From a virus (Duplodnaviria > Heunggongvirae > Uroviricota > Caudoviricetes), in IMG/VR virus record IMGVR_UViG_2617270943_000004, positions 1-40,994 of that record: DNA of 40,994 bases; one strand, 5' to 3'. Every line of letters begins with the position of its first letter. Positions within the stretch are counted from its first letter, which is position 1. Shown here one piece after another: positions 33,321 through 34,160 of this stretch. Under the pieces are notes generated by a model. It made no database searches. It saw only the letters and a list, made by a program, of their open reading frames with translations, and was not told where the DNA came from. Made by a program: the position numbers and the translations under genes.

Positions 33321-33407
33321 ATGGAAGAAGAATTTGAAGAGTTCGAAGAGCATCCTCAGGATGTGATGGAACAATACCAGGACTATCCTTATGACTACGA
33401 CTATTGA
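33321..33407 (+). CDS. Small acidic peptide (lambda orf28-like by size and position)
   Basis: 28 aa; GAGGTG RBS; overlaps the next ORF by 17 nt. Confidence 0.25.
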   Translation: MEEEFEEFEEHPQDVMEQYQDYPYDYDY

Positions 33408-33591
33408 TAAAAATCAATGGTGTGGACAATTCAAGCGATGCAATGGATGCAAACTGCAATCGGAATGCATGGTTAAGCCTGAAGAAATGCTTCCTGTAAT
33501 GGAGGATGGGAAGTATGTCGATAAATGGGCAATACGAACTACGGCAATGATTGCCAGAGAACTTGGTAAACAGAACAACAAGGCTGCCTGA
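33391..33591 (+). CDS. Small Cys-containing protein, Ral-like (restriction alleviation) by size and position; tentative
   Basis: 66 aa immediately downstream of N; family recall not verified. Confidence 0.4.
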   Translation: MTTTIDKNQWCGQFKRCNGCKLQSECMVKPEEMLPVMEDGKYVDKWAIRTTAMIARELGKQNNKAA

Positions 33592-33630
33592 TGGTGGCCT
33601 TTATTTTTGGCATAAACAACAGAGGATAAC

Positions 33631-33927
33631 ATGGAATTTAAAGGTACTGAAGGTAAGTGGGAAATAATGATGGATGGCGATGAGATTAAAATCATCCAGG
33701 CAGACTCTCTTGAAAATGGCGCAGGCTGGCGTTCGTATATTGCAATCTGTGAGGAAGTTCAATGCATTGAAGATGCCAATCTAATAGCGGCAGCACCTGA
33801 CCTTCTCGAAGCACTTCAGTTATTACTTAAGCAATCCAAAAATAGAACAACGACAACATATCCAGAATGGTATGGAGCTGTTAATAAAGGTTTTGCAGCA
33901 ATCATCAAGGCTCTGGGAGGTGAGTAA
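33631..33927 (+). CDS. Hypothetical protein
   Basis: 98 aa; RBS AGAGGATAAC; no family recognised. Confidence 0.45.
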   Translation: MEFKGTEGKWEIMMDGDEIKIIQADSLENGAGWRSYIAICEEVQCIEDANLIAAAPDLLEALQLLLKQSKNRTTTTYPEWYGAVNKGFAAIIKALGGE

Positions 33928-34127
33928 TGTGCGAGTTTTACGAAGCAGATATCAAACGCCCAGAAATGGCAAGTGATGCGACATTACGTGATTACTTCGC
34001 GGCAAAGGCTATGCAAGCAATGATTAGCAATCCATCGATTATCGATAATGATTCTGATGGAGCTGTTAATTATGCAGCAAGCGCTGCATATAAGTTTGCA
34101 GACGCAATGCTCAAAGCTCGCGAATAA
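33927..34127 (+). CDS. Hypothetical protein
   Basis: 66 aa; TAATG overlap with the upstream ORF; GGGAGGTGAG RBS. Confidence 0.4.
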   Translation: MCEFYEADIKRPEMASDATLRDYFAAKAMQAMISNPSIIDNDSDGAVNYAASAAYKFADAMLKARE

Positions 34128-34132
34128 GCACT

Positions 34133-34160
34133 GTGTATTCATTCCAACGAGTGAATACAC
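34133..34160 (+). other. Long perfect hairpin (9-bp stem) without a T-run; possible RNA processing or binding site
   Basis: GTGTATTCA-(10 nt)-TGAATACAC. Confidence 0.35.

Follow-up and report, generated by a model that had tools for sequence, protein, structure and literature searches.

Organization of the block between N and cIII

The block of small genes and RNA elements between the antiterminator gene N and cIII was analyzed in the IMG/VR virus record IMGVR_UViG_2617270943_000004 (Caudoviricetes), of which positions 1 to 40,994 form the window, that is, the whole stretch of 40,994 nucleotides under study. The phage is a P22-like Escherichia coli phage, with virion genes resembling those of CUS-3 and its relatives and an early region resembling that of lambda and HK544. 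The plus strand of the block is the direction of the PL promoter, and the order along it is cI, a PL-like promoter, the nutL boxB, N, the block and cIII (Table 1). Between its two boundary genes the block holds orf28 and ral, a terminator-like hairpin at the end of ral, two coupled open reading frames (ORFs) of 98 and 66 codons, a long hairpin, and a stretch matching the small RNA (sRNA) PreS with its terminator, followed by one further hairpin. Transcription of the block would come from PL, with read-through under N antitermination. A preliminary description made from the sequence alone had proposed a PL-driven accessory slot downstream of N, which is supported by the promoter and boxB located here, and the ORFs, the hairpin with a 9-bp stem and the two terminator-like hairpins are all found where it had placed them.

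Table 1. Features of the N to cIII block and its surroundings, in window positions
Feature	Position	Strand	Evidence and remarks
cI	31771-32493
PL-like promoter	32619-32647
nutL boxB	32703-32717
N, antiterminator, upstream boundary of the block	32986-33312	+	Pfam N36 E 1.5e-26, phrog_271
orf28, 28-aa acidic peptide, 17-nt overlap with ral start	33321-33407	+	phrog_16060 E 7e-19
ral, restriction-alleviation protein Ral by homology, 66 aa, 4 Cys	33391-33591	+	Pfam PF11058, phrog_1055
Terminator-like hairpin over ral stop codon, with T-run	33580-33609	+	9-pair stem (33580-33601) plus TATTTTTGG
Mosaic insertion, 504 bp (ribosome-binding site, ORF98 and ORF66)	33624-34127	+	Replaces 9 nt of lambda, ATAAACACT; lambda, Sf101, Dewey and mEp043 compared
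ORF98, PF27050 'Phage_P22_Y8K6' / phrog_1273	33631-33927	+	phrog_1273 E 4e-30, residues 1-97
ORF66 (66 aa), helix-loop-helix, 'GGPAFP...RDYFAAKAM...ADAMLKARE' phage family	33927-34127	+	phrog_2201 (C-terminal part), phrog_37111, phrog_20565
Long hairpin, 16 pairs, one A·A mismatch, 4-nt loop CAAC	34128-34165	+	Starts 1 nt after ORF66 stop; lower stem takes in PreS nt +1 to +4
PreS (LPR1) Hfq-dependent sRNA by sequence match, 86 nt (lambda ~88 nt)	34162-34247	+	Primers of the preprint authors
PreS seed, complementary to the dnaA-3′/dnaN 5′ region	34192-34224	+	RNAduplex; includes the authors' M1 site GTTCTGATT
tL2a intrinsic terminator, being the PreS terminator and Hfq-binding U-tail	34223-34246	+	GCCCTC-CAGTGT-GAGGGC (34223-34240) then T6
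Second terminator-like hairpin, 5′ of cIII	34250-34291	+	Stem 34261-34280 and T-rich tail; extended inverted repeat 34250-34291
cIII, downstream boundary of the block	34313-34483	+	phrog_550 E 1e-22

A covarying hairpin at the 5′ boundary of PreS

The preliminary description had reported a perfect 9-bp-stem hairpin lacking a T-run between the last ORF and the terminators. Both the stem and the missing T-run are real, the stem (34133-34141/34152-34160) occurring once in the window where 0.01 occurrences are expected by chance, but the structure is longer than described, with 16 pairs, and is not anonymous, as it frames PreS together with the first terminator. It has a free energy of -21.7 kcal/mol (z = -6.4 relative to shuffles). 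The lower stem encloses the PreS +1 position (34162), and its three pairs with PreS nucleotides +1, +3 and +4 are invariant.

A scan of IMG/VR with the invariant 19-mer at the PreS 5′ end recovered 120 loci, and the hairpin stands at the same place in every locus with examinable upstream sequence. This place is filled by four unrelated stem sequences, namely the lambda type, the mEp043/SI8 type, the ST104 type and a fourth type, and the stem type reassorts independently of both flanks. In the covariation alignment, which consists of 13 distinct sequences, 94.2% of cells are paired and half of the pairs (8/16) are changed on both sides. The covariation score is 0.577, as compared with a score of at most 0.153 and at most 50% of cells paired when the register is slid by 1-3 columns, and the observed covariation is reached by 0/500 shuffles. 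Several conserved positions are G·U pairs, among them columns 22/31, which are U·G in 12 of the 13 sequences, and in each of the seven variants folded the PL-sense strand is more stable than its antisense counterpart. The conserved G·U pairs and the better folding of the sense strand point to an element that acts as RNA on the PL transcript rather than as a DNA palindrome. The long hairpin is a selected RNA structure, and RNase III therefore stays a legitimate candidate for a nuclease at this site.

The junction with the upstream gene is conserved as well. Upstream ORFs of any family finish with GAATAA at a distance of 1 nt from the hairpin in those non-lambda variants that were checked, and unrelated upstream ORFs (window 34120-34131, our comparison loci L001 and L003-L006, and IMG/VR loci) give the conserved junction GAATAAGCAC. 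Lambda retains GAATAA at the same junction, followed by a 5-nt insertion. This stop-hairpin junction suggests either a recombination linker or translation termination that is coupled to the hairpin.

Other identities of the hairpin were considered and rejected. An intrinsic terminator is contradicted by the AT-rich stem and the missing T-run, and the hairpin is unreported by the terminator scan. A promoter is contradicted by the lack of a sigma-70-like site and by stem sequences that are unrelated between phages, and a repeated element by the single occurrence in the window.

The PreS sRNA and its terminators

PreS, also named LPR1, is an sRNA that depends on Hfq and has its gene between ral and ea10 (PMC12197685; Silverman et al., bioRxiv 10.1101/2024.10.31.621285). 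In the lambda lytic cycle it is found as species of ~88 nt and ~68 nt, its GC-rich hairpin and poly-U form the terminator tL2a, and it upregulates the translation of dnaN, acts as a repressor of alaS and aids the replication of phage DNA (bioRxiv 10.1101/2024.10.31.621285). The ends of PreS in the window were mapped from the primers of the preprint authors, with GAGCAATGTCGCTCGTAACT as the 5′ start and ...GAGGGCGATTTTTTA, from the reverse primer, as the 3′ end. Over 88 nt, the window copy and lambda LPR1 differ in a single substitution (34210 G>T) and a single gap of 2 nt, and the copy thus falls within the conservation threshold used in the preprint for LPR1 (at least 92% identity, at most 3 gaps). 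Unlike in lambda, the two bases before the U-tract are missing and T6 directly follows the terminator stem. Position 34210 is T in the window and G in lambda and in all of the 40 commonest of 63 variants (~120 related loci). It adjoins the GAA triplet that the preprint authors mutated (M2) to break pairing with alaS.

The PreS seed is predicted by RNAduplex to pair with dnaN positions -48 to -11 at -32.3 kcal/mol, compared with -15.6 +/- 3.2 kcal/mol for shuffles, and the lambda variant gives the same duplex energy. Judged by this sequence match, the segment is identified as the PreS sRNA ending at tL2a, for which Hfq binding and DnaN up-regulation are known from lambda. The seed would pair upstream of dnaN, increase synthesis of the beta-clamp and thereby help lytic replication, as has been demonstrated experimentally in lambda.

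Both of the terminator-like hairpins noticed beforehand are present (34223-34240 followed by T6, and 34261-34280 followed by a T-rich tail), but they are not anonymous, the first being tL2a and the 3′ end of PreS. The second has the same sequence as a hairpin between ea10 and cIII in lambda, and we take it to be tL2b of the lambda map. Rfam 15 gave no match in 32400-34800, PreS included, and a literature search for 'tL2a' returned unrelated papers only.

A 31-aa ORF on the plus strand (34167-34262), which lies inside PreS and runs through tL2a, is probably not a gene and was rejected as one, its ATG being replaced by ATA or ATT in other PreS variants. The same ORF carries a coding sequence annotation in phage Dewey, and at least one deposited coding sequence hence overlaps PreS and is probably spurious. 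Within the invariant 5′ part of PreS, CGCTCGTAA (34171-34179) is one base off the lambda nut boxA sequence CGCTCTTAA; it stands 3′ of the hairpin, whereas boxA precedes boxB in nut sites, and the resemblance is possibly a coincidence.

A divergent PreS homologue occurs in Salmonella P22-like phages. It is ~74% identical and longer, with another terminator (GCCGCTC...GGGCGGC) and the same invariant 19-mer start, and is found in SI8 (at ~2250-2400 of our locus L005) and ST104 (at ~2240-2345 of L006) as well as in ES18, BTP1, SEN22 and Emek. Recombinant forms exist, such as that in locus L122, which combine a 5′ half of the lambda type with a 3′ half of the Salmonella type. The preprint covered only PreS homologues that are at least 92% identical (bioRxiv 10.1101/2024.10.31.621285).

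The orf28-ral unit

The 66-aa cysteine-containing protein had been called Ral-like by size and position only, a wording that is overturned by its full-length homology. Ral matches Pfam PF11058 over residues 1-66 of 66 (E 6.3e-48, 160.7 bits against a cut-off of 25) and phrog_1055 at E 6.7e-49, and is 98% identical in amino acid sequence to lambda Ral, with a ratio of non-synonymous to synonymous substitution rates (dN/dS) of 0.04. Its place in the PL operon, downstream of N and right after the overlapping orf28, agrees with membership in the family, and the Prokaryotic Genome Annotation Pipeline labels the gene in E. coli genomes as 'antirestriction Ral family protein'. On this homology the protein is a bona fide Ral. 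Ral makes type I restriction-modification enzymes such as EcoKI and EcoBI methylate unmodified DNA, such that restriction is relieved via enhanced modification, a route of type I restriction alleviation reportedly described by Loenen and Murray in 1986. A screen of phage accessory genes includes Ral (PMC12373910).

The 28-aa acidic peptide, described beforehand as being of unknown function, is a real acidic ORF (net charge -12, pI 4.05) but a known one, as it matches lambda orf28 in 28/28 amino acids, with only synonymous differences (dS 0.10). It accompanies ral in 47 of the 51 ral-bearing loci, is more highly conserved than Ral, and overlaps the ral start in every locus. In 39 of these 47 loci it is 100% identical. 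The orf28 of ST104 (~770-856 of L006) is unannotated and essentially identical, although the Ral of ST104 is only 75% identical. For ral, the peptide may serve as a leader or a functional partner; alternatively, it may be constrained at the nucleotide level. As judged by homology, orf28-ral is the conserved anti-restriction unit of the block.

The hairpin over the end of ral (-16.2 kcal/mol, z = -3.0 relative to shuffles) has the same sequence in lambda. It is missing from the preliminary description and, to our knowledge, is not among the named tL sites.

The ORF98-ORF66 cassette

ORF98 and ORF66 overlap at TAATG and make up, with their ribosome-binding site, a 504-bp cassette placed exactly between the ral-end hairpin and the hairpin flanking PreS. 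The whole arrangement is found in 13 of 5,426 complete E. coli genomes, and none of the phage records in the collection spans even 80% of the stretch from ORF98 to cIII (33592-34312). Both proteins are acidic (pI ~4.5). The pair had been described as belonging to no recognised family, which does not hold, since ORF98 falls in PF27050/phrog_1273 and ORF66 matches phrog_2201, phrog_37111 and phrog_20565, all of them families without known function.

ORF98 has 165 homologues, and nearly all of the 120 listed carry a PF27050 flag; the PF27050 model is absent from the local Pfam copy, and the assignment of ORF98 was made via these flagged homologues rather than by scoring ORF98 itself. The family is mosaic: the N-terminal beta-strand part exists in several alternative forms and the middle varies; the LIAAAPDLLEAL helix is invariant and the C-terminal AISKALGEE is conserved. 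ORF98 has in common with PF27050 'Phage_P22_Y8K6' the LIAAAPDLLEAL core and the operon position, and carries its own version of the N-terminal beta-strand part. The AlphaFold2 model of ORF98 (predicted local distance difference test score 74) contains three strands in a weak N-terminal sheet and a confident helical hairpin at residues 45-94. Genes of the ORF98 family always lie between N/24 and cIII/c3 in lambdoid and P22-like phages. The annotation of ST104 ties its family member to P22 orf78, which we take, from the name and the P22 map, to be the "Y8K6" protein between ral and gene 17. A remote relationship of ORF98 to Ead/Ea22-like proteins is conceivable. The N-terminal half of ORF98 (residues 4-52, window 33631-33790) is 45-55% identical to hypothetical proteins of virulent phages. 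The carriers of this N-terminus are virulent phages of Klebsiella, Salmonella, Cronobacter, Proteus and Escherichia, mostly of ~145 kb, in which it adjoins nucleotide-metabolism genes.

ORF66 gave 1,488 matches in a homologue search and 44,176 clusters at 50% identity (E<=1e-3) in a profile search, and no Pfam model covers its family in the local or the precomputed annotation. The AlphaFold2 model has two helices (residues 20-34 and 44-65). ORF66 keeps the C-terminal helix-loop-helix of the family with the invariant RDYFAA and ADAML motifs, and lacks the N-terminal GG(P/Q/S)AFP motif, in place of which it has MCEFYEADIKRPEMASDA, as do close E. coli relatives. Typical members are 70-90 aa long with a GGPAFP start, and the family includes tandem-repeat forms of ~170-180 aa.

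The preliminary description had made its view depend on the ORFs being kept as coding sequence, and this is the case. dN/dS is 0.13-0.26 for ORF98, 0.47 for ORF66 and 0.04-0.16 across comparisons for Ral, and orf28 has no non-synonymous change relative to lambda. Because of these ratios, ORF98 and ORF66 are genuine genes under purifying selection, and they are widely kept at the same operon position. The profile and structure searches that it had proposed for the four products placed Ral, orf28, ORF98 and ORF66 in families and gave no functional lead for the latter two. Searches of Pfam, NCBIfam and PADLOC matched no functional model for ORF98 or ORF66, the PDB sequence search was empty and no structural analogue was obtained, and searching the literature for either PF27050 or the motif strings yielded nothing relevant. 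Their sequences are also not among the supplements of the accessory-gene screen (PMC12373910). The genome paper on phage L likewise notes that no function is known for most of the early-left genes in P22-like phages.

ORF98 and ORF66 are most likely dispensable, N-dependent early proteins that bind host factors in the manner of their neighbors Ral, cIII, Kil and Abc2, a view based on the neighborhood only. PF27050 and the very large RDYFAA family occupy a slot that is otherwise used by host-manipulating proteins, which makes them reasonable candidates for functional screens. It is rather unlikely that the two are specifically anti-defence proteins. Similarly, that ORF66, which belongs to one of the largest uncharacterised families of small phage proteins, is a widespread host-takeover or anti-defence factor is a long shot that we would rate no higher.

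Role of the hairpin and alternative readings

Overall, the block probably represents the PL-operon segment of lambda (N - orf28 - ral - PreS/tL2a - (ea10) - tL2b - cIII) in mosaic form, carried by a P22-like E. coli phage; the role of the hairpin and the binding of host factors by ORF98 and ORF66 form the inferred part of this reading. As a mosaic variant of a classic region the block is ordinary, and Ral, orf28, PreS, tL2a and tL2b account for most of it; the sole non-trivial new point is the covarying hairpin at the 5′ boundary of PreS, the rest being mostly known, and current understanding is not overturned by any of these results. The interval is commonly labelled "hypothetical protein / none" in lambdoid and P22-like genomes and should carry Ral, orf28, PreS with tL2a, and tL2b.

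From its structure and location we infer that the hairpin is an RNA element that serves to process or insulate PreS and the upstream mRNA; cleavage by RNase III is possible. It would mark the boundary between the upstream mRNA and PreS on the PL transcript. Most likely it would direct or position the endonucleolytic cut that creates the PreS 5′ end, made either by RNase III within the lower stem or by another nuclease at its base, and it may also cap or protect the 3′ end of the upstream mRNA. Hfq-dependent sRNAs are known to be cut from longer mRNAs, as for the 3′ untranslated region-derived CpxQ and SroC, and RNase III hairpins occur in phage early transcripts such as the lambda N leader, sib and T7 R1.1. 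No promoter-like site was found in a scan of the hairpin. With respect to RNase III, the stems have 16 pairs in the lambda type and ~11-14 in the other types, covariation is strong, and the PreS +1 position is in the lower stem. A more specific form of this reading, held tentatively, is that the covarying hairpin is a modular signal dedicated to processing and insulation, which frees PreS from the polycistronic PL transcript, for instance via an RNase III cut in the lower stem, and so uncouples PreS dosage from the upstream cargo gene. If true, it would represent a previously undescribed biogenesis element for a trans-acting phage sRNA, exchangeable in at least four stem versions. In either form, the structural conservation of the hairpin offers a concrete and testable handle on the production of PreS from the PL transcript.

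Several points weigh against such a cut. A classic RNase III substrate is longer than the stems of types B to D, in which only ~11 pairs are contiguous, and the sequence at the proposed cut, G/GAGC, is unlike the RNase E preference. The published +1 of PreS may be approximate. Finally, the preprint does not discuss the biogenesis of PreS or the hairpin, and it makes no mention of a hairpin, stem-loop, promoter or RNase for PreS biogenesis (bioRxiv 10.1101/2024.10.31.621285).

The hairpin might instead only stabilise the 3′ end of the upstream message, be it ral or ORF98-ORF66, against 3′ exonucleases and have no part in making PreS. Such a role fits the position of the upstream stop codon, 1 nt 5′ of the hairpin in the non-lambda variants checked and for any ORF, as well as the missing T-run, which is expected of a stabiliser rather than of a terminator. 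However, the hairpin stays with PreS and not with a given upstream gene, since one and the same ORF ending is found before different stems and one and the same stem after different ORFs, and its lower stem uses PreS nucleotides +1 to +4 in invariant pairs. We regard stabilisation as unlikely, though not negligible, as the exclusive account; the stabilising and processing roles are compatible.

A broader alternative, close to the preliminary description, is that the four ORFs are anti-restriction or exclusion genes and that the hairpin is an RNase III site otherwise unconnected with anything. Ral is a genuine anti-restriction protein by homology, the same slot houses sieB, HNH endonuclease or pentapeptide-repeat genes in relatives, ORF98, ORF66 and orf28 are small and acidic like many DNA-mimic anti-restriction proteins, and the hairpin is selected double-stranded RNA. 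Nevertheless, ORF98 and ORF66 match no anti-defence or defence model and have no structural analogue, sieB is absent, and the hairpin is physically joined to a known sRNA, PreS, rather than free-standing, all of which leave this alternative doubtful. For sieB, the window holds no PADLOC, Pfam or PHROG match of the SieB or any other defence kind, and it likewise gave no tblastn match to the translated lambda interval from N to orf28, which we take to be sieB encoded on the opposite strand. The designation of the block as a site for anti-restriction and exclusion genes thus stands for restriction, by virtue of Ral, and finds no support for exclusion, and no evidence links ORF98 or ORF66 with restriction alleviation.

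That ORF98 and ORF66 form an obligate two-component system, of the toxin-antitoxin or enzyme-partner kind, is improbable. Translational coupling through the TAATG overlap would be in keeping with it, as would the recurrence of the pair at ~60% identity in E. coli prophages (for instance the adjacent NP882_000988/NP882_000989) and its presence in Sf101 and Dewey. The two are nonetheless not an obligate pair because the small ORF that comes after a gene of the ORF98 family is an unrelated one in mEp043 (52 aa), in SI8 (41 aa) and in ST104, where the counterpart of the SI8 ORF is unannotated; in addition, most members of the ORF66 family differ from ORF66 in the N-terminus, and no toxin-antitoxin or defence model is matched. 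A toxin-antitoxin pair in particular is rejected, as the partner gene varies.

It is also very improbable that the inverted repeat acts as DNA, as a protein-binding palindrome or a recombination junction for mosaic exchange, in spite of its location exactly at a mosaic boundary and the short invariant junctions on its flanks (GAATAAGCAC and GAGCAAT), given that the conserved G·U pairs, including columns 22/31, would be A·C mismatches on the other strand, that the PL-sense strand folds more stably in every variant folded, and that arms of 11-16 bp with only 4 nt between them are unlike operator half-sites.

Comparison with known systems

The early-left segment of lambda has the order N - sieB - orf28 - ral - PreS(LPR1)/tL2a - ea10 - tL2b - cIII. 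The window has in common with it the gene order and orientation, a 100% identical orf28 and a 98% identical Ral, nearly identical sequences of the hairpin, PreS, tL2a and tL2b, and the same dnaN-complementary seed. Unlike lambda, it carries the ORF98-ORF66 cassette and is without ea10 and sieB. In lambda the long hairpin and the GCCCTC terminator come directly after ral, and ea10 lies between that terminator and the second one just 5′ of cIII.

Sf101, Dewey (BASEL), mEp043, APC_JM3.2 and the Salmonella phages SI8 and ST104 have, as in the window, a PF27050 gene between N/24 and cIII/c3, followed by a small ORF, the hairpin and PreS. The ORF66 of Sf101 is identical to that of the window, and the ORF98 of mEp043 is 95% identical. 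Across these relatives the partner ORF, the type of hairpin stem and the preceding and following genes vary, the preceding gene encoding Ral, an HNH endonuclease, a pentapeptide-repeat protein or another product.

With regard to its biogenesis, PreS resembles sRNAs of the CpxQ and SroC type in ending at an intrinsic terminator, in having no promoter-like site upstream and in having a stable stem exactly at its 5′ end. The hairpin differs from classic RNase III substrates in its shorter stems and in its location outside the mature sRNA, and its cleavage is putative here.

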